DNA from: Moorena sp. SIO3I8
GTDB taxonomy: Bacteria; Cyanobacteriota; Cyanobacteriia; Cyanobacteriales; Coleofasciculaceae
Assembly (NCBI RefSeq): GCF_010692325.1
Contig: NZ_JAAHHW010000027.1
Coordinates: 2,640-66,639, forward strand
DNA length: 64,000 nt
Direction: 5' to 3'
This document shows positions 50,933 to 63,652 of the stretch, in pieces. The notes under the pieces are model-generated. The model searched no databases and was not told where the DNA came from. It worked only from the letters and a program-made list of their open reading frames with translations. Every line of letters starts with the position of its first letter. The first letter of the stretch is position 1. A program made the position numbers and the translations under genes.

Positions 50933-51538
50933 AATTACTAAAAACTAGTTTTTTATGTTGAGATTAAATTAATCAAAATACCTGGATTTTAGACTTGATT
51001 TTTTCTAAAATTAATACCACATATACTTATCGATATTCATTGGTTCGTTATCAGGTTTAATCGTTACTCATAATACCCTTCGTTATTATAGATTAACCAT
51101 TACCAAATTTGAGAATTAATATGTGGATAATTTTTATAAAATTAATAAGTGCGAATATATTCAATATTTTTAATCCTAAATTAATAAGTATTGGTTCAAA
51201 AAAGCTTAGCTGATTAAGGAGAAGATAAAAATGCTCTCCACTTAAAGACGGGAGAGTCGATGGTAAATGATAAACGGTGATGGCTATAAAATTGGTATAA
51301 TTACCCATTAATCATTACCCATGACCTATTATCCTTTATCCGTAACGATAACCCTTTAAGGGATTAGCAGTTAAGCAGATAGTTGTCATCCTACCCTCCG
51401 GATTTTGGGCAAGTATTAAAACTATCTCTTGACTTTGGGTAATAATCTATCCATCAGTACCTATCAATGTATAAAAATTATGATGAAATTATAGATAGTA
51501 TTTTTACGGATTTTTTTTTAGCTGTGCCAGAATCTAAG

Positions 51539-53539
51539 ATGCTATTTAACCTCGAAGCCCCTTTTAAACCAACAGGGGACCAACCCCAAGCTATTTCCCA
51601 ACTCACCACTTACCTCAAGGCTGGCAACCCTATCCAAACTCTACTGGGTGCTACGGGGACAGGTAAGACTTTCTCCGTGGCATCGGTAATTGAAAAAGTC
51701 GGCAAACCTACCCTAGTACTTGCCCACAACAAAACCTTGGCTGCCCAGTTATGTAACGAATTGCGGGGGTTTTTTCCCCATAACGCGGTGGAGTATTTCA
51801 TTTCCTACTATGATTACTACCAGCCGGAAGCTTATATCCCGGTCACTGACACGTACATCGAGAAAACCGCTTCAATTAATGATGAAATTGATATGCTGAG
51901 GCACTCAGCTACGCGATCGCTTTTTGAACGGCGGGATGTAATTGTGGTGGCTTCCATTAGCTGTATCTATGGCTTGGGTATCCCCTCAGAATACTTAAAA
52001 GCCTCGATTCCTCTGCGGGTAAATACCGAAGTTGACCAACGCCAACTCTTACGGGATTTAGTCTCAGTACAGTATTCCCGGAATGATTTAGAATTGGGAC
52101 GCGGACGGTTCCGGGTGAAGGGGGATGTATTAGAAATTGGCCCGGCTTATGAAGACCGAATTATTCGGGTAGAATTCTTCGGAGATGAAATTGATGCTAT
52201 TCACTACGTTGACCCAGTTAGCGGTGGAATTTTCCAAAGTGTAGAGGGAGTCAATATTTACCCTGCTCGTCACTTTGTTACTCCCGATGAACGGTTGGAA
52301 GAAGCTTGTAATGCTATTAAGGCAGAACTTGAGGAACGTTTGGCTCAATTGGAGCAAACTGGTAACTTGCTAGAAGCGCAACGGTTGGAACAGCGTACCC
52401 GCTATGATTTGGAAATGTTGCTCGAAATTGGTTACTGCAATGGTGTGGAAAACTATTCTCGTCACTTGGCTGGACGCCAGCTTGGGGAACCACCAGAGTG
52501 TTTGATTGATTATTTTCCCGAAGATTGGCTTTTGGTAGTGGATGAATCCCATGTTACGGTGCCGCAAATTCGGGGAATGTACAATGGCGATCGCGCTCGA
52601 AAGCAAGTGTTGATTGACCATGGCTTTCGCTTACCCAGTGCAGCAGATAATCGACCCCTGAAGGCAGAGGAATTCTGGGCAAAGGTGAATCAGTGTATTT
52701 TTGTCTCTGCTACTCCTGGGGATTGGGAGATGGAACAATCTCAAGGACGAGTCGTGGAACAGATCATTCGTCCTACCGGAGTGCTTGACCCAGAAATCTT
52801 TGTTCGTCCTACAGCAGGTCAAGTCGATGATTTGTTGGCTGAGATTAAGCAGCGGGTGGATTGTCAGGAAAGGGTGCTGATAACAACCTTAACCAAGCGC
52901 ATGGCTGAGGATTTGACAGACTATCTGCAAGAACGGGATATTCGAGTAAGCTACTTACACTCGGATATTAACTCTATTGAACGGATTGAAATCTTGCAGG
53001 CGTTGCGCCAGGGTGAATTTGATGTGTTGGTTGGAGTTAACTTGTTGCGAGAAGGGTTGGATTTGCCAGAAGTCTCTCTGGTAGCAATTTTGGATGCCGA
53101 TAAGGAAGGGTTCCTCAGGGCAGAGCGATCGCTTATTCAAACTATAGGCAGAGCAGCACGTCATGTCCGAGGGCAAGCCATTATGTATGCTGATACCTTT
53201 ACAAAAAGCATGAGAAAAGCGATTGATGAGACTAATCGCCGTCGTAAGATTCAAATTGAGTATAATATCAAAAATAACATTATACCACAGCCGATTCGCA
53301 AAACCGCAAACAACCCGATTTTGACATTTTTGGATGTCTCCCGACGGTTGAATTCCCAACAGTTGGAAGCGGTGTTTGAACAGGTGGATGATGTACCTTT
53401 GGAGAAGATTCCGGAGTTGATTAATCAGTTAGAAGAACAGATGAAGGAAGCAGCAAAGACCTTGGAATTTGAAACGGCAGCAAAGTTACGCGATCGCATT
53501 AAGCAGCTGCGGGATAAACTGCTAGGTAATCGAACTTAA
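51539..53539 (+). CDS. uvrB: Excinuclease ABC subunit B
   Basis: The ORF track starts at 51467. The family-typical start is [19 protein letters not shown] at 51539. Helicase motifs and a C-terminal UVR domain are present. Confidence 0.9.
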
Positions 53540-53926: not shown

Positions 53927-56900
53927 ATGAGACTAAAATTGAGCTGTCTTAACCTGTTGAGCCAGATCATGGGTAAGGGAAGATGGGCAGCAACTAAGTT
54001 TTTCCTGCTTGTTTGTTCTTCAACCTATTTGAGCTGTTGCCCGTTGCCAACCCCTGTGCAGGCGCAACCGATAGTTGAAGCCAACGATGGTACTGGTACT
54101 GTTGTCAACCCTGAGGGTAACCAATTCAACATTGATGGCGGTAAGCTGTCGGGAGATGGTGCGAATCTCTTTCACAGCTTCCAGAAATTTGGTCTGAGTG
54201 AAGGTCAGATTGCCATCTTTCTCTCTCATCCTAATATCCAAAATATCCTAGGGCGAGTGACTGGTGGTGATGCTTCTGTAATTAATGGCTTAATCCAGGT
54301 TACAGGGGGTAATTCCAATTTATTCCTGATCAACCCCGCTGGGATTGTCTTTGGTGCTGGTGCCAGCATCGATCTACCTGCTTCTTTTACCGCCACCACT
54401 GCTACTGGTATTGGTTTTGATGGCGGCTGGTTTAACGCCATTGGTAGCAATGACTATGCTTCTTTGGTAGGCAAGCCCAATACTTTTGATTTTGCTGTTT
54501 CCCAACCAGGTGGGATCATCAATTTAGCTGATTTAGCAGTTAAAGAGGGGCAGAATTTAACCTTAGTAGGTGGTACTGTTGTCAGTAATGGCACTCTTAC
54601 TGCATCTGGTGGTCAAGTTACTATTGAGGCTGTGCCTGGAGAAAATTTACTCCGTATTTCCCAGCCAGGTAATATTCTGAGTTTAGAAGTTTCCCCCTCT
54701 GCCACTGTTCCCTTCACTCCCCTTTCCCTACCCGAACTGCTGACAGTTGGCGGCGGTGATGCTACAGCAATTGAGGTAAATCGTGAGGGTACAGTACAAC
54801 TGATCGGTTCTGGTATCCAGGTGGAAGATGGCGATGTAGTAGTGCAGGATATCAGCGCTGGTCAGCAAGTAGTTATTGAAGCAGAAGGTAATATTCGGAC
54901 AGCATCAGTTACCTCGGATGGTGGAAGAATTTTCCTCAATAGTAGAGAAGGAGGGATTGATACTAGTAGTGGCACGTTGGATTCAACGGCGGTAAGTGGT
55001 GATAGTGGAAATATTGACCTAAAAGCAAAAGATAATATCACTACCGGAAGTATCAATGCTTCCAGTAATAATGGTGATGGTGGTGATATTACTGCCGTAA
55101 GCGATAGAGGAAGTATTGATACTAGTGCTGGGGTAGTTGATTCTTCCTCTGTGGAAGGTAAAGGAGGAGAGGTTCAATTATTCGCTACCGAGGGAAGTAT
55201 TAATCCTGGCGATGTAGTAGTGCAGGATATCAGCGCTGGTCAGCAAGTAGTTATTGAAGCAGACGGTAATATTCGGACAGCATCAATTACCTCGGATGGT
55301 GGAAGAATTTTCCTCAATAGTAGAAAAGGAGAGATTGATACTAGTAGTGGCACACTGGATTCAACGGCGGTAAGTGGTGATAGTGGAAATATTGACCTTA
55401 AAGCAGAAGGTAATATCACTACCGGGAGTCTCAATGCTTCCAGTAATAATGGTGATGGTGGTGATATTACTGCTGTTAGCGATACAGGAAATATTGATAC
55501 TAGTGCTGGGGTAGTTGATTCTTCCTCTGTGGAAGGTAAAGGAGGAGAGGTTCAATTATTCGCTACAGAGGGAAGTATTAATGCTGGTGATATAAATGCT
55601 GCTAGTAGCAATGGTGAGAGTGGCAATGTTACTCTTGTTGCTGGTAGTGACATCAGTAAAGGAAATGTTACTGCTACTTCTACTATTATTTCCATTCTAG
55701 ATTTCAGAAACCAGAATTCTACTATAAAAAGTTCAGAATCTCCAGTCTCACCAATACCTGAACCTCCACCTTTTTTAGATCTAGATCCACCCACGATTGA
55801 ACCTCCTTCAGTCATCGTCTCAGAGCCATTACCACCGCTACCACCAGCAAATATAGGTATTCCACCACTACCACCACCAGAACCTCCAACACAAGAAGAG
55901 CCAGTTTTTCAACCAGTACCACCGCCAGAACCTCCAACAACATCAGATTTAGGTATTCCACCACGACCACCACTACCACCGCCAGAACCTCCAAAACCGG
56001 TAATTCCTGCACCTATAAATCCTGTAAATCCTTCAAATCCTTCCCCAACAACACCATCACCAAGGTCAGACAATCAAAACTCTGCCTTGCCAACCCAAGT
56101 TAATCGATCAGATGTGGCGGTCAATCAGAGCAAGAGGTCAAACAAGACTCCAGCAATTGAACTAGAACGACTGACAATCCTGGTACTGGAAATTACAGAG
56201 TGTCTGGCAGAAGAACAATTGCTCAGAAATCCTCAAGGATTTTCTATACAAGTTGCTGCCAAAGATTACACTAAAGCTGCCGAATGCTATGACAAAAATT
56301 TAGAATTTGCACGAAAAACTGGCGATCAATTGCGAGAAGCAAAAGCTTTGCATAACCTCGGAGTAACTCACTATAGATTGGGAGACTATGGCAAAGCTAT
56401 AGACTATCATAAGCAGCATTTTAATCTTGCCCAATCAGACCCAAACTTAAGAAGAAAACCACAAGCTTTTAGTGGTTTAGGAGCCGCTTATGGCGCAATA
56501 GGAAACTATGACAAAGCTATTGAATACTATAAACAGGGTCTAGAACTAGTAAACTCAACCAATGAGTCTGAGCTGGAAAGGAATATAGTAAGCAATCTCG
56601 GATTAGCTTACTACGCTAAGAAGGAATATACCAAAGCACTTGAATACAAAGAAAAAAGTTTAGCGATCGCTAAAACATCCGATAACCTACCTGGAAAGGC
56701 AAGAGCATTATCTAATTTGAGCTTGCTGTACTATACTCTGACCGACTATAACCAAGCAATTGAATACTCTCAGCAGAGTTTAGCGATCGCACAAAAACTG
56801 CAAGATAACTATGGAGAGTTAGTAGCCCTAGAAAATTTGGGAATAATTTACCATGCTCTAGAAGACTACAACCAAGCAGTAAACTACCAACGCCAGAGTT

Positions 56901-58153
56901 TAGAAATTGCCAAGCAACTAGGTGATCGCCACGCCGAGGGACGAGCTTTGAGCAACTTAGGTGATGCTCTCTACAAAGCCGGAAATCCTCAAGAAGCAAA
57001 TGAGGCTCTATTTGCTGCCATTGAAATTTGGGAGTCTTTGCGGTCGAACTTAGGCAGCAATGACCTTGAGAGAGTATCAATATTTGAAACTCATCAAACA
57101 ACTTATAGCGCTTTACAAGAGTATTTAGTAGAACTAAAACAATTCAATCAAGCCCTAGAAATTACCGAAAGAGGAAGAGCAAGAGCTTTTGTTGAACTAT
57201 TAGCAAGAGGTTTATCAGAGTCTGAATCAAAACTCAAAACTAATAAACCGATTGCTCCTCCGACTATCAAACAAATCAAAAAAATTACTGAAGAACAAAA
57301 CTCGACAATAGTTTTATACTCGATTATCAAAGAATTCGTCGAAGCCCAAGGTGTGCGGCAACTTCAAGACAAAGAGCTTTACATTTGGGTAATTAAACCT
57401 ACAGGGAAAATCGCTTTTCGTCAGGTTGATTTAACTAATCTGGATACATCTCTGAAAGAATTGGTTGTTATCACTCGTAAATCGATTTTTTTAAGAAGAA
57501 GCCCATCCCTAGTTGATTTAGTTCCCAGAGAAAGATTGACTAAAACAGAGAGAGCTGGTCAAACTGAACGATTAAAACAACTGCATCAACTGCTCATTGA
57601 ACCAATTGCCGAACTCTTACCTACTAATCCGGAAGCTCGTGTCACCTTTATTCCCCACGAATCCTTGTTTCTAGTACCTTTCCCAGCACTACAAGACGCT
57701 TCTGGTCAATACCTGATCGAAAAACATACTATGCTCACTGCTCCCTCTATTCAGGTGCTGGATTTAACTAACCAGCAACGGCAACTGGTTTCTGGAGAAG
57801 AGATGCTAGTAATTGGTAATCCCACTATGCCTCAAGGTTTGCCCCCTCTTCCTGGAACAGAAACAGAAGCGCTAGCGATCGCTGAGATGTTCAATACTCA
57901 AGCCCTGATTGGCAATCAAGCCACCAAGAAAGCAGTTGTTGAGCAAATGTCAAGGGCAAAGATCATACATCTAGCTACTCACGGCTTACTGAATGACTTC
58001 CAGGGATTAGGTTTACCAGGAGCGATCGCCCTTGCTCCGACTAAAACAGATAAGGGTTTGTCAAGAAATAAGTTCATGGTTTTTGAGCAGATTGAGACCG
58101 AGGATGAATCATGTAATTCCACTGGGGACAAATGGGACGATGGGTCAAGTTGA
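53927..58153 (+). CDS. Large secreted protein: filamentous-haemagglutinin-type TPS (two-partner secretion) N-terminal domain, near-identical 126-aa tandem repeat, Pro-rich linker, TPR array and CHAT (caspase-like) domain; the 3' end is truncated by an IS insertion
   Basis: TPS/haemagglutination-activity motif region [12 protein letters not shown]...[11 protein letters not shown]...[13 protein letters not shown] repeats span ~56.2-57.2 kb. The CHAT N-terminal half ends HLATHGLL...APTKTDKG and then reads into IS sequence. Confidence 0.8.
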
Positions 58154-59413
58154 GTGCTGCCATTTGTTGATCTGAAACTTTGATTCGAGTGGGGTAGACT
58201 CCCTTGATTTGAGCTGCTTTCACCCTCAGTCCTGTTTGTGTAGTCGTTCCACGAATCAGAGCAGTCATCTGAGCCAAGGAACGCAGTGGTTTTCCTGCCC
58301 AATTGAGTGAGATAAAGCTGAAGAGGCGATGCTCAATTGGGTTCCATTTAGAAGCTCCTGAGGGATAGTGACAGACCATAACTGTGATTTCGTGTGGGTC
58401 CGCCAATTTTTCCTGTAATTGGAGTTTCCAGTTGCGAACCCGATAACCGTTACTCCCACCTGAATCACACAGAATCAAGATTTTGCTTTCATCAGCAAAA
58501 CGAGGTCGGTCTTTTCGTTTAAACCAGCGCACGATGGCATCGACAGCAAAAGCTGCCGTATCTCCAGAAGTACCCACATAAACATAACCTTGATTGTGAA
58601 CCAAGTCGTAGATGCCATAAGGGACGGCTTTAGCCAAGGCATCTTTGGGAAAGTCATGGTCGTTGACTGCTTCGGCTTGCTGAGTCCACTCTTGCCCAGG
58701 GTTTTTGAAATTCCCAATTAGCTCTTTCTTCTTGGTATCGACACTGAGCACCGGATGTCCGGCTTTGATAAAGCGTTCTTTGACTCGCTCCAGGTAACGG
58801 AATTGCTGGTCACGCTGAGGATGCTGGGTGGTCGCAACCGACTTGCGGTTTGCTTTGAGGGAATAGCCCAACTGTTTCAACAGTCGTCTAATGCTGGTAT
58901 GACTCACCAGAAAACCGATACTGGCCAACCTGGCTTTGATGCTCCGCAAACTCTGACGAATCCATTTGCAAGCACCACTTGGGTCTCCTGCTACATCTGC
59001 TTCTACTACTGCTTGCAAGCTTGCCGAGACTCCTTCGAGTTTTTTTCTACCCGTTTGCGTCCACCCCCTGCCAATCGAATTCGCTCTGTTGGACGATTGA
59101 CTAACCCCTGATCAAGTTCTCGTCGCCCTCGTCGAATCGTGTTGATATCTAACCCTGTGACCTCACTCATCCTCTGAGTCCCCCCATGCCCTAACTTTTT
59201 CGCTTCTAAAGCCGCTAGCCATCGCCGTTGCTGTTCATCCAGGCGGCTCATCAACAGATTGAGTTGCTGATGTTGCTTTTGGATGGTTTTGTTTCCCTGC
59301 TGACACTCCCAACACTTGCACTGATTAATGTTTTGCCTCCCCATATGAGTACTCCGATTCTGATATTAGACTCCCTTGTCTAATTCTAAAACCATGAAGT
59401 TGTTTTTTAACAA
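58058..59413 (-). mobile_element. ISAzo13-family insertion sequence (DDE transposase in two overlapping frames) inserted in the CHAT domain
   Basis: Imperfect ~35-bp terminal inverted repeats (ttgtcaagaaataagttcatggttttt / revcomp ttgttaaaaaacaacttcatggtttta). ORF 59006..59344 has an HTH N-terminus (LDEQQRRWLAALEAKKLGHGG...). ORF 58074..59018 has the DDE core (...HYPSGASKWNPIEHRLFS...). Flanking sequence ataagggttt / ctaaaggttt looks like a short target duplication. Confidence 0.75.
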
Positions 59414-59754
59414 GCCCTAAAGGTTTTCTCAGTGCCAGTGAAATACTCGACCTCAAGCTTAGTGCTGAGTTAGTAGTTTTAAGTGCTTGCAACACTGGTA
59501 GAGGTAGAGTTACCAGTGATGGCGTGATTGGATTATCCCGTTCTTTAGTTGCTGCTGGTGTACCTAGTGTGGTTGTTTCCCTCTGGAAAGTACCTGATGA
59601 CTCCACAGCTGACCTGATGATTGAATTCTATCGCCAGCTACAACAAACACCTGACAAAGCAGTTGCTCTGCGTCAAGCCATGCTTACGACTCTTAAACAG
59701 TACCCAAATCCAGTGGAATGGGCGGCTTTTACCCTGATTGGGGAAGCGGAGTAA
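59414..59754 (+). pseudogene. Detached C-terminal fragment of the CHAT domain belonging to the 53927 gene
   Basis: Translation ...KGFLSASEILDLKLSAELVVLSACNTGRG...GLSRSLVAAGVPSVVVSLWKVPD... continues the CHAT domain exactly where the upstream ORF leaves it. It includes the catalytic Cys of the LSAC motif. Confidence 0.75.
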
Positions 59755-59841: not shown

Positions 59842-60321
59842 ATGAACACTGAGCTCCAATTTCCTTGGCAACAAGACCCAGTAATTCGCCAGAGCCAACG
59901 TCTAATCAATAGCTTTCATCATTGGACAGGGCATTCTCTAATCGATACCAGTGGCTTACCTATCGAAATTGCACAGGCACTATTTGAAGCTCCCTTTGCC
60001 GTCTTCTCTCACAACACTGAATCAGACCCCATTTACAACTATGGCAATCGGAAAGCTTTGGAATTGTGGGAAATGGATTGGAACCAATTGACTCAGATGC
60101 CTTCGAGATATTCAGCTGAGCCAATGGAAAGGGAGGAGCGCTTACGCCTGCTTAACCAAGTGACAAGCCAGGGCTATATTAGCAACTCTCAAGGTGTCCG
60201 CATTTCTAGCACTGGTAAACGGTTCCAGATTTTAGATTTTATCGTCTGGAATCTCATTGATGAGGAAAATAACTATTGTGGTCAAGGGGCTACGTTTTCC
60301 CAGTGGATACGGATTAATTGA
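59842..60321 (+). CDS. MEKHLA-domain protein (PAS-like)
   Basis: FSHNTESDPIYNYGNRKALELWEMDWNQLTQMPSRYSAEP...YCGQGATFSQW matches the MEKHLA consensus of cyanobacteria and plant HD-ZIP III proteins. Confidence 0.75.
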   Translation: MNTELQFPWQQDPVIRQSQRLINSFHHWTGHSLIDTSGLPIEIAQALFEAPFAVFSHNTESDPIYNYGNRKALELWEMDWNQLTQMPSRYSAEPMEREERLRLLNQVTSQGYISNSQGVRISSTGKRFQILDFIVWNLIDEENNYCGQGATFSQWIRIN

Positions 60322-60803: not shown

Positions 60804-61316
60804 TTGATCACTCATCAAACCGAAAGCCATATTGGGAATGAAAACTATGGAATAAAAACTATGATAAAAGCCAGGCTTTTCGGCAAAACTAGGTTGCCCA
60901 AACCATTTGTTTGGACAGTCATTTTTATCTGCATTTTACCCTATATTCTGCATCAATTAGGGGTTGATTTTAGTACCCATCAGGAACTGTTTGACCTCTC
61001 GGCAGCCTCTGAATGGGAACCCCATGAAGTTAATGATGCCATGCACTCGGTCTTTTCCGGAAGTTTTGTACACACACTCCTGGAGTGGAGTGGTGTCTGT
61101 ACAGCGTTTTTTACTGTTTGCTTAGCCTTCACGAACTACAGCATCACCAAAGACCCAATCGTTCCTATCATCGGCGTATCACTTTTTTTTGCTGGTGTGA
61201 TAAATGCCTTTCATACTCTGGCTGCTGACCGCTTAATTGATGTTGTCGCCGATAATCGTAATTTAACTAGCTCGGCGGGAATTCCCACGCTTAAGCCACA
61301 GCTTAGCGTGGGATGA
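60804..61316 (+). CDS. Hypothetical membrane protein; its last ~10 codons run into the IS200/IS605 left end
   Basis: 170-aa ORF with several hydrophobic helices. Confidence 0.4.
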   Translation: MITHQTESHIGNENYGIKTMIKARLFGKTRLPKPFVWTVIFICILPYILHQLGVDFSTHQELFDLSAASEWEPHEVNDAMHSVFSGSFVHTLLEWSGVCTAFFTVCLAFTNYSITKDPIVPIIGVSLFFAGVINAFHTLAADRLIDVVADNRNLTSSAGIPTLKPQLSVG

Positions 61317-61359
61317 AAGCCAGGTTGGGTGATGGGGTTCGATGCCCCATCACCCAACA

Positions 61360-61790
61360 TCAGTCAGGTCTGTCCTGACTCTGAACGTATTCTTTGAGTT
61401 GTTCAACGGTAACCCCTCCACAACTAGCAATGAAGTAGCCGCCAGTCCAGAACACTTTTTTCGAGTAATACTTATTCACTTGATCGGGAAATTATTTCCG
61501 TAGGTATCGACTGGAAACGGTCTTGAGATTATTGATTAGTTTGCTCAGCTGAGTCTGGGGATTGTATTGGATCAATAAATGAACGTGATCCGCTTCACCA
61601 TTGAACTCGACCAAACTACCTTCCCACTTAGACATCAGTTCTGAAAATATTGATTCTACGCGGGTTAGCATCACCCCTGTGAAGACTTTACGCCGGTATT
61701 TTGGGACTAACACGTTGAGGAGCTTTCAAGTTTGAAACGCCTCTAGCACGGTGGATATCATCTTTAGGCATGGGTTGACACTAATTCCTG
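61360..61790 (-). pseudogene. tnpA: IS200-type Y1 (HUH) transposase TnpA, inactivated
   Basis: ORF 61492..61713 carries ...VPKYRRKVF...HVHLLIQ...SRYLRK and then a TAA stop. The next in-frame codons continue the family C-terminus (FPDQVNKYYSKKVFWTGGYFIASCGGVTVEQLKEYVQSQ). The N-terminal region upstream of VPKYRRKV is also out of frame. Confidence 0.7.
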
Positions 61791-61842
61791 TGCTGGTGCT
61801 ATAATAACACTAAGCCCCGCAGTAATGGTCGGATCGGCCGCT

Positions 61843-63246
61843 ATGAAATCAACGCTTCAGTATCGAGCTTACTTAAACACTAAGCAAAAACTTGAGGCTA
61901 ATTATTGGCTTCGAGTGTGTCGCTATTGGTATAACCGCCAGCTCGGAGATCGTTTCGATTGGTGGGACAACAATAGAACCAAAGTCAACGCTTGTCCGTT
62001 AGTTTGCCCGTTACCTGAGCTCAGAGATCAGCCGACTAGATACGGTCAACAGTCACAATTGCCTGGACTCAAAACAGATCTGATCAAGGTGTTTCATAGC
62101 GGTGAGCTGTTGGACTTCACCCGATTAGATTCAACCGTTTTGCAGGATGTCTGCAAACGGGCTGACGATGCTTTCAAGCGTTATATATCGGGTGATTCCA
62201 ATGGCTTGCGTAGCGGTAAGCCACGGTTTAAGAACCAATCCAGCTACCGGACGATGGTGTTCGCAATGGTCAAACCAAGGTGGATTTATCTTGTCCGCAA
62301 AAACTGGCTCTATATCAAGCTTCCCAAGCTCGGAATGGTGAAGGTTCGGATGCACCGACCAATGCCGGATGGTGCCGTTGTCAAACGTGTTAGCTTGACT
62401 AAAAAAGCCGATGGTTGGTATATCAACCTGACCGTAGCAGATCCTACGGTGCCTAAGTTGACGCCTGATCAGATTGTCCCCACTTGGGATAACTCAATCG
62501 GTCTTGACGCAGTGCTAGAGGGCGATGACTACATTGCCACATCTGAAAATACCAAATACAAATCAGCTAAACCGCTGCGTAAGTCTTTACCAAAACTCAA
62601 GGCCGTCTCTGCTAAGAAATCATCGAAACGTAAAGGTTCTAAAGCCCGTCGCCAGCTAGCATTGCGTGAATCTCGAATACATCAACGCATTGCTAGGCAG
62701 CGCCAGAATCACCGTTACAACCTGGCTCACTTGCTGGTGAAAACCGGCAAGAAAGTGTTTTTCCTAGAGTTGCTAAATATCAAGGGACTGACAAAACGAA
62801 ATAAACCCAACAAAGCCGCTGATGGGACGTATTTGCCTAACGGCCAATCGGCTAAGTCTGGGCTGAACAAGTCTTGGTTAGACGCGGCGTTTGGTGAATT
62901 TATAACCACACTGGACTACATAGCCTCAAAAGCTGGAGCAGTGGTTATCAAACAAAAACCGGCGTATTCATCAATGATTCTGAGTTATCGGAACGAAGTT
63001 ATATTTACCGATTGCTCAATCAGAAAGTATTACGATCCGGTTGAAAAGGTTTTGGTTGACCGGGATGTGAATGCCGCAATCAACCTCAAACGACTTGGGC
63101 TGGGCGTTTTCCCAAGTATAAAACGGCGTAGTGGGAAGCTAGTCGTATCTGGCGATATGGACAATAGTACCACGAAGCAAATCGTGTCTATCCTAAGGGA
63201 CGGCACGGACACTCGATCGCTTCTCAGTCTTTGGCCTATGGCCTAG
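61843..63246 (+). CDS. tnpB: IS605 OrfB-family TnpB (RuvC-like RNA-guided nuclease homolog)
   Basis: N-terminus MKSTLQYRAYLNTKQK and RuvC-like motifs (IGLDA, FLELLNIKG, DRDVNAAINL). The usual CxxC...CxxC zinc finger is replaced by SSMILSYRNEVIFTDCSIRKYYDPV, which has a single Cys. Confidence 0.75.
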   Translation: MKSTLQYRAYLNTKQKLEANYWLRVCRYWYNRQLGDRFDWWDNNRTKVNACPLVCPLPELRDQPTRYGQQSQLPGLKTDLIKVFHSGELLDFTRLDSTVLQDVCKRADDAFKRYISGDSNGLRSGKPRFKNQSSYRTMVFAMVKPRWIYLVRKNWLYIKLPKLGMVKVRMHRPMPDGAVVKRVSLTKKADGWYINLTVADPTVPKLTPDQIVPTWDNSIGLDAVLEGDDYIATSENTKYKSAKPLRKSLPKLKAVSAKKSSKRKGSKARRQLALRESRIHQRIARQRQNHRYNLAHLLVKTGKKVFFLELLNIKGLTKRNKPNKAADGTYLPNGQSAKSGLNKSWLDAAFGEFITTLDYIASKAGAVVIKQKPAYSSMILSYRNEVIFTDCSIRKYYDPVEKVLVDRDVNAAINLKRLGLGVFPSIKRRSGKLVVSGDMDNSTTKQIVSILRDGTDTRSLLSLWPMA

Positions 63247-63652
63247 CCTTTGGCGAACGGATGAAGAAGCCCACGCTATAGCGCCAGCTTAGCGGTGGGA
63301 GTGCGTCACTTCCATTTACCTGGGCACTCTGTCGGCTTTTCAATGCACTAATCCTGATTCTAGGAACTAGCCTTTGCTCAAGGAGAAGCTGGGTAGAAAA
63401 AAACCAAACCAGGAGCTTGGGTTTTGTCATTATTGTCAGCTTGGGGTTTGGGTTGATTGCCTATGGTATAATTCCAGGGTAAACGCATCTAAATTTGTAT
63501 CAAAATTAACAGTTAAAAATTAAACAATAGTATCAAAAATCTAGAATTACCCGGTTGATTCTCAATAAGCGCCACTTATTCTCAATTATAGCAGTCGCCA
63601 GGGCAGGCGCGGACATGACAAAAGTCTCAAACCTAAGTAAGCGCAAGAGTTT

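Follow-up and report, generated by a model that had tools for sequence, protein, structure and literature searches.

Insertion sequences (ISs) of the ISAzo13 family, such as ISNpu10 of the Nostoc punctiforme plasmid pNPUN01 (NC_010631), are elements of approximately 1.3–1.4 kb with imperfect inverted repeats, and their transposases match the models NF033519 and PF07592 from end to end. An element alike in all these respects was found in the 64-kb stretch of DNA analysed here (the window), which comes from a filamentous marine cyanobacterium, a member of the genus Moorena. The element lies inside a gene whose product combines a two-partner secretion (TPS) domain, tetratricopeptide repeats (TPRs) and a caspase-like CHAT domain. 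Our reading, held at a probability of about 0.9, is that the ISAzo13-family IS knocks out this TPS–TPR–CHAT gene and that its own transposase is made by programmed recoding.

ISNpu10 also carries its transposase across a frameshift at an A-run. The coding sequence called by PGAP is apparently joined across that frameshift, because its span of 1232 nt together with a protein accession implies such a join. The two elements share 42.5% identity and differ in the site of the shift. In ISNpu10, tblastn revealed the frame change at an A9 run within the catalytic DTKKKE motif (approximately query residue 205), whereas in the window element the shift falls at an A7 run that follows residue 101 and separates the DNA-binding from the DDE part, and DTKKKE is encoded there with no homopolymer. 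Comparison of the sequences indicates that recoding at A-runs is recurrent in the ISAzo13 family, at differing sites. The Streptomyces members of the family differ from the present element in having single open reading frames (ORFs), and the link of its transposase to IS630 is distant (NF033545, E 4e-11). The proposed fusion of its two reading frames by recoding can be likened to regulation of the IS1/IS3 type.

The interrupted host protein resembles the TPS exoproteins of the FhaB/FhaC, ShlA/ShlB and CdiA/CdiB systems, with which it shares an NPxG-bearing TPS domain at the N-terminus, a long repeat passenger and a functional C-terminal module as in the CdiA toxins. Its cargo differs, being an all-alpha TPR array followed by a CHAT domain of the caspase/separase-like peptidase clan CD, with no nuclease or pore-forming toxin, and the Moorena loci show no adjacent TpsB or immunity-like gene. 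Among proteins of solved structure, the closest by sequence was DdvA of Myxococcus xanthus (PDB 8ROT/8RW5), which has a periplasmic TPR–CHAT module. A search of PDB sequences with the TPR and CHAT regions together was dominated by TPR matches; it was repeated with the CHAT domain alone, for which DdvA was the only significant match. The similarity is weak (approximately 140 residues, E 4.6e-4), and DdvA is a membrane-anchored anti-sigma factor and no TPS substrate. The TPR-then-CHAT order and the caspase-fold His–Cys protease are also shared with the cytoplasmic proteases Csx29 of the type III-E craspase, separase and HetF (PMC11506125). The host protein differs from these in having a signal-like sequence and a TPS domain, and in its neighbours, uvrB and a MEKHLA-domain gene. 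No similarity to Csx29 or separase could be detected in the PDB sequence search with the CHAT domain, and the craspase context was not found, no Cas protein being present among the ten largest ORFs of the window scanned with Pfam.

Insertion of the element into the CHAT domain

The IS is 1364 bp long and occupies 58054..59417, with its transposase on the minus strand; these limits are set by a 100%-identical copy elsewhere and by its absence from four Moorena assemblies. Its junctions read ...ACAGA-TAA-[GGGTTTG...CAAGCCC]-TAA-AGGTTT..., where the brackets enclose the element. The TAA target-site duplication accordingly has its left copy at 58051..58053, in place of the single TAA of empty sites, and its right copy, placed by the junction reading and the empty-site comparison, at 59418..59420. 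The 5' portion of the host gene (53927..58053, plus strand) contains codons 1–1375 plus 2 nt, and the 3' portion (59421..59754, plus strand) runs from the last base of codon 1376 to the stop and contains the LSACNTG motif. Excision in silico of the element and one TAA (53927..58053 joined to 59421..59754) produced a single ORF of 1486 aa, in which the CHAT domain was complete (residues 1214–1484; PF12770 profile positions 2–289 of 289, E 8.5e-72) and TPR families were matched by Pfam over residues ~780–1050.

An earlier note, made from the letters of the window, had proposed joining the two halves of the CHAT domain in silico and screening related strains for the empty site; the joined frame does restore a contiguous CHAT domain, and empty sites were found. 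Its size of ~1.36 kb for the element also stands, while the limits that it gave, 58058..59413, are 4 nt off on each side. The join that it proposed (..58057 with 59419..) is in frame but retains two extra codons, and its statement that the host frame resumes at 59414 was incorrect, since that position is out of codon phase.

A scan of species-representative genomes with the C-terminus of the joined product revealed 41 loci, the best being those of M. producens 3L (99% aa identity) and M. bouillonii PNG (98%). In BLASTN comparisons with relatives, the window sequence up to 58059 and that from 59418 onwards meet directly in 3L, PNG and Moorena sp. SS36440bin_2. The empty site, ACAGATAAAGGTTTTCTC, with one TAA, was present in four assemblies, namely M. 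producens 3L, M. bouillonii PNG, Moorena sp. SS36440bin_2 and Moorea sp. SIO3I7 (loci L002, L003, L023 and L043). Over 6900 bp the SIO3I7 contig matches the window with 99.71% identity, and the intact protein of this strain (P0001), recovered by protein search, is 100% identical to the joined product, junction included. The insertion is a real transposition event with target duplication, recent and strain-specific, because empty sites with one TAA occur in these four Moorena assemblies, including the near-identical SIO3I7.

The IS landed at a TAA after codon 1375, inside the CHAT domain, and duplicated it. The N-terminal part of the domain up to the insertion point (57566..58053, plus strand; PF12770) contains an HLATHG motif. 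His1352 of its THG (codon 57980–57982) and Cys1399 of the SAC beyond the element (codon 59488–59490) align residue for residue with H862 and C907 of DdvA (PDB 8ROT), which make up that structure's catalytic His–Cys dyad (PMC11506125). Thus, the IS is placed between the codons of the two predicted catalytic residues. The host reading frame continues 32 codons into the IS and then stops, so that the truncated host ORF of the ORF listing (53927..58153, plus strand), the 5' part of the TPS–repeat–proline-rich–TPR–CHAT gene, encodes 1408 aa and ends in an IS-derived read-through tail (58054..58153, plus strand; 32 residues, GLSRNKF…DDGSS, plus stop). The truncated ORF retains the TPS domain, the repeats, the proline-rich linker, the TPRs and the His-bearing half of the CHAT domain. 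It follows directly from the predicted dyad that the truncated product, if made, cannot act as a cysteine protease, because the IS separates the two catalytic residues. The earlier note was therefore right in placing the interruption before the cysteine of LSAC and in describing the 1408-aa product as a chimera with IS sequence, and the loss of caspase-like activity that it foresaw is what the separated dyad predicts.

The explanation that competes best with a knockout is one of altered function, in which the truncated 1408-aa product is exported and serves as a protease-inactive adhesin or TPR scaffold, or some members of the population carry the insertion and others do not, as an on/off state. 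Such a product is conceivable, as the insertion lies downstream of the sequence for the TPS domain, the repeats, the linker and all TPRs, and the frame remains open for 32 codons of the IS. Moreover, passenger-repeat copy numbers of 1, 2 or 3 and a 3752-bp deletion among Moorena alleles suggest relaxed or diversifying selection on this gene. However, half a CHAT domain is likely to misfold, the gene loss in another metagenome-assembled genome (MAG) fits dispensability better, and no mechanism of precise excision is known for the ISAzo13 family. Altered function is thus regarded as improbable, though it keeps more weight than any other alternative to the knockout.

The two-frame transposase and its proposed recoding site

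The terminal inverted repeats of the element could be located at 58054..58086 (GGGTTTGTCAAGAAATAAGTTCATGGTTTTTGA, the end downstream of the transposase) and 59385..59417 (reverse complement GGGCTTGTTAAAAAACAACTTCATGGTTTTAGA, the upstream end). The repeat finder returned one long inverted pair, 58053-58086 with 59385-59418 (34 nt, 82% complementary), in agreement with the imperfect repeats of ~35 bp described in the earlier note. A 30-nt probe of the left end occurred once in the window and in 0 of 100 shuffles.

The transposase is divided between two ORFs on the minus strand. ORF A (59006..59344, frame 0) encodes the 112-aa N-terminal DNA-binding part (NF033519 positions 2–79, E 1.2e-17), and ORF B (58074..59018, −1 frame) encodes the 314-aa DDE catalytic part, counted from a TTG start (PF07592 E 2.2e-113, 378.8 bits against a cut-off of 26.9; NF033519 positions 82–387). 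Joining ORF A to ORF B requires a −1 shift, and a shift at an A7 run would give a 423-aa fusion of a 101-residue N-terminal part to the DDE domain, which matches NF033519 over positions 2–387 of 387 with 477 bits (cut-off 200). Both models exceeded their cut-offs, in line with the family assignment of the earlier note. The putative recoding site, G-AAAAAAA-C (59039..59047, minus strand), presents the slippery heptamer A_AAA_AAC in the ORF A frame, and the A7 run itself (59046..59040) lies within GTA-GAA-AAA-AAC, 30 nt before the ORF A stop. The earlier note had proposed looking for a programmed frameshift motif at 59006-59018; the motif lies ~25 nt upstream of that ORF overlap in the transposase sense.

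The motif GAAAAAAA occurred at the same position in five lineages with 63–100% aa identity. The A7 run was kept in loci L006, L053, L054 and L055–57 (63–80% aa identity to the window copy), and a short ORF A was called upstream of ORF B in each of L053–L057. Among the best 120 database clusters, all those at 66% identity or more (89/89) start at query residue 85 or later and represent ORF B only. All those at 53–63% identity (31/31) are single ORFs of 378–423 aa, which read GGGR..VEKK.. across the site, in colinearity with the 423-aa fusion. The consensus heptamers of programmed-frameshift gene clusters include A_AAA_AAC, and an A-run can work in transcription or in translation (PMC3711429). 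The split transposase is accordingly best explained, as far as sequences can tell, by programmed recoding without decay, either through −1 ribosomal slippage or through RNA-polymerase slippage adding one A, because the A7 run and the split are conserved across diverged lineages. ORF A alone would be the default translation product, and slippage would yield the full transposase.

A 10-nt palindrome of the window copy, GCAAGCTTGC, was not conserved in L006, L053 and L054, a dedicated search for a downstream stimulatory RNA structure not having been made. A literature search on ISAzo13 and frameshift found no paper treating a frameshift of this IS family.

The earlier note had recognized the division of the transposase over two frames and implied that it was damage. 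In this explanation the transposase was merely broken by a frameshift mutation and the element is a dead relic. The two ORFs do lie in different frames with no programmed frameshift marked by NCBI, and homopolymer runs are hot spots for replication or sequencing errors. Nevertheless, lineages with as little as 63% aa identity retain the same A7 run and the same split, and both of their halves remain open; the close database clusters are all split and none fused. Identical copies occur in several Moorena assemblies and at more than one locus, their inverted repeats and target duplications being intact, and a split relative (P0204) is listed in 80 blocks of a contig collection, which fits active spread. 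A broken transposase is therefore considered very unlikely, and programmed recoding is preferred for the split.

The distribution of copies was also assessed. A 100%-identical copy of the IS (L001, GCA_010692345.1) adjoins a glycosyl-hydrolase-9 gene and aligns over 1365 bp (58054..59418), where the extra T at 59418 is flank or coincidence. The inverted-repeat ends match the limits of this second copy and are kept in diverged copies. Exact ORF A and ORF B proteins were present in two assemblies, Moorea sp. SIO4G2 and Moorena sp. SIO3I8, and relatives of ORF A with at least 90% identity in SIO4G3, SIO3B2 and SIO2I5. A 78%-identical copy was found by chance in a Tildeniella nuda locus (L006). 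In the plasmid collection no close relative of the IS was found, all matches there being below 60% aa identity. Inspection of six located copies revealed 3-bp duplications, the duplicated triplet being TAA on either side of the window copy and of the L006 and L053 copies, TAA at the one visible end in L054 and L058, and AAA in L001. With its ends, its target duplication and both transposase frames intact, and an identical copy elsewhere, the IS looks functional from its sequence.

The least tenable explanation, an assembly chimera in which the repeated IS was misplaced into an intact gene of a metagenome-assembled genome, can draw on the probable MAG origin of the source (the exact IS proteins occur in Moorea SIO MAGs) and on the tendency of IS copies to break assemblies (the L001 contig ends 3 nt past the IS), but is hardly credible, as an assembler would not create an exact 3-bp TAA duplication against a single TAA in the empty site, and the duplications found where related copies inserted independently agree with it in length and, for the most part, in sequence.

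Several points weigh against the reading of a knocked-out exported protease and a programmed transposase. The direction of the shift is not uniform, being −1 in four lineages and +1, at the same A7 run, in L055–L057, and the NCBI annotation of the element names ORF A a 'hypothetical protein' and leaves the programmed frameshift unmarked. Seven A residues make a short run for efficient transcriptional slippage, and in E. coli A_AAA_AAC is a weaker shifter than A_AAA_AAG. As for the host gene, both the proteolytic activity of the CHAT domain, here as in any member of the family, and the expression of the intact gene are putative. Furthermore, no gene for a TpsB transporter was found in the window, as the earlier note had stated (Pfam on all ORFs of at least 397 aa; tblastn with the TpsB of Calothrix NIES-4071, best E 0.18), and none was adjacent to the homologues in Moorena (20-kb loci), Microcoleus, Kamptonema or Halomicronema.

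A single run at which sister lineages need opposite corrections, −1 or +1, inclines the interpretation towards RNA-polymerase slippage over a ribosomal shift, because such slippage can add or drop an A. The L055–L057 lineage has 69% aa identity, its A7 run lies at approximately position 700 in L055, and the contig collection lists its ORF B protein in 80 blocks. These elements may represent an undescribed ISAzo13 subgroup of filamentous cyanobacteria, with TAA integration and a 3-bp duplication, and a transposase gated by a conserved A7 run between its DNA-binding and catalytic parts, with RNA-polymerase slippage as the common mechanism; this proposal is tentative, and we rate it at somewhat less than an even chance.

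The TPS–TPR–CHAT protein and its predicted export

According to the ORF listing and Pfam, the host gene is located downstream of uvrB (51467..53539) and upstream of the MEKHLA-domain gene (59842..60321). The start of the SIO3I7 orthologue was called by NCBI at Met15, which corresponds to 53969 in the window. The N-terminus ahead of the TPS domain resembles a Sec-type signal (…PVQA followed by QP), as judged by eye only. The TPS domain (54086..54799, plus strand; residues 54–291; PF05860 E 3.6e-42) also matches the NCBIfam model TIGR01901 adhes_NPXG (E 3.5e-22) and has its NPAG motif at residue 136. Tandem Repeats Finder located the passenger repeat, two tandem copies of 378 bp (126 aa) each with 95% matches, at 54829..55591 on the plus strand. 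The proline-rich spacer (55694..56026, plus strand; residues ~590–700), evident from the translation and from a trough in GC skew, contains a degenerate 48-bp repeat at 55854-55973 detected by the same program. The TPR array (56249..57076, plus strand; residues ~775–1050) is matched by TPR_12, TPR_1, TPR_2, TPR_7 and TPR_10. Analysis of the joined product with Pfam and NCBIfam bore out the domain order of the earlier note, TPS–repeats–proline-rich–TPR–CHAT; the array that it described is present, with ~7–8 units in place of the ~10 that it counted.

The Moorena alleles vary in this region. BLASTN maps revealed one copy of the passenger repeat in 3L (L002 7594-7978), two in the window and in SIO3I7, and three in PNG (L003 6841-7981). 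PNG also carries ~1.58 kb extra between the CHAT stop and the MEKHLA gene (L003 10799-12379) compared with the window (59776/59792). The orthologue of SS36440bin_2 (L023 9975-10040) has a 3752-bp out-of-frame internal deletion at an AAGG microhomology, equivalent to 54205-57956 of the window, which is either an independent inactivation of the host gene or an assembly collapse in the MAG.

Nearly all of the best 120 matches to the joined protein carry PF05860, TPR families and PF12770. These matches come from Moorena, Microcoleus, Kamptonema, Oscillatoria, Trichocoleus, Coleofasciculus, Calothrix and others, and are labelled in the database as 'CHAT domain-containing protein' or 'filamentous hemagglutinin family protein'. 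The TPS–TPR–CHAT architecture is thus common in filamentous cyanobacteria and already annotated. A literature search on TPS and CHAT in cyanobacteria found no functional study of TPS–TPR–CHAT proteins.

The homologue of Calothrix NIES-4071 lies directly downstream of a 562-aa POTRA_2/ShlB gene, which is the canonical tpsB-tpsA order. The search for a TpsB outside the window, proposed in the earlier note, gave one in Calothrix and none in the 20-kb Moorena loci. When the Calothrix TpsB was used as a tblastn query, neither the window nor 42 loci gave a TpsB, and a database search with it returned 2924 homologues of cyanobacterial type, with no Moorena entry among the best 120. From its domain content the host gene is inferred to encode a TpsA-type exoprotein with predicted export. 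The POTRA domains of a TpsB channel of the Omp85 type would serve as the docking site for the TPS domain, and by analogy with FHA, CdiA and DdvA the TPR–CHAT module would work in the periplasm or at the cell surface.

Neighbour clustering at the 41 CHAT loci gave CHASE2, Peptidase_C14/DUF4384 and DUF1822 as partners. Conserved neighbours were rejected as a clue to secretion, as these partners belong to TPR–CHAT paralogues without a TPS domain. Such genes (L005, L006, L011, L014, L024 and others) cluster with CHAT–CHASE2 or CHASE2–cyclase proteins (13 loci), with caspase-like Peptidase_C14–DUF4384 proteins (10 loci) and with DUF1822 (6 loci), and the CHAT genes are often in tandem. In a Halomicronema MAG (L049 1-5238), a second TPS–CHAT gene without TPR matches adjoins a DUF928 gene near the TPS–TPR–CHAT homologue, an arrangement that suggests paralogous TPS–CHAT cassettes.

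Other features of the window and significance of the locus

Downstream of the host gene, the window contains a 2043-bp element of the IS200/IS605 type (61267..63309) with a truncated Y1 TnpA fragment (61492..61713, minus strand) and a 473-aa TnpB/OrfB (61825..63246, plus strand). M. bouillonii PNG and Moorena sp. SS36440bin_2 lack this element, with 61266 running directly into 63310. A MASE3-domain sensor gene (60804..61316), the PNG version of which continues to 878 aa, appears to be cut by the insertion. The MASE3 gene would be the second IS-disrupted gene within 2 kb of the CHAT gene. In another part of the window, an 879-aa ORF (24388..27027, minus strand) contains Major Vault Protein repeats and the shoulder domain (Vault, Vault_2/3/4, MVP_shoulder; E 2.5e-67), which makes it a bacterial homologue of the shell protein of eukaryotic vaults.

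As regards annotation, the 1408-aa 'protein' is chimeric and its locus should be called a pseudogene, and a single transposase with a programmed frameshift should replace the separate entries for ORF A and ORF B. Both the IS family and the protein architecture belong to known kinds, and current understanding is unchanged. What is new are details, namely the exact boundaries, the TAA duplication, the placement of the IS between the His and Cys codons, the alleles left intact in sister strains and the conserved A7 run as a putative recoding site. The IS data also supply a clear example of probable recoding at a short A-run throughout a clade, together with a TAA target preference. For the organism, a cyanobacterium rich in natural products, the insertion amounts to a strain-specific loss of a caspase-like protease with predicted export. 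If this is true, the window strain as a knockout and SIO3I7, with the intact gene in 99.7% identical DNA, would constitute a natural experiment on the widespread and unstudied TPS–TPR–CHAT proteins.

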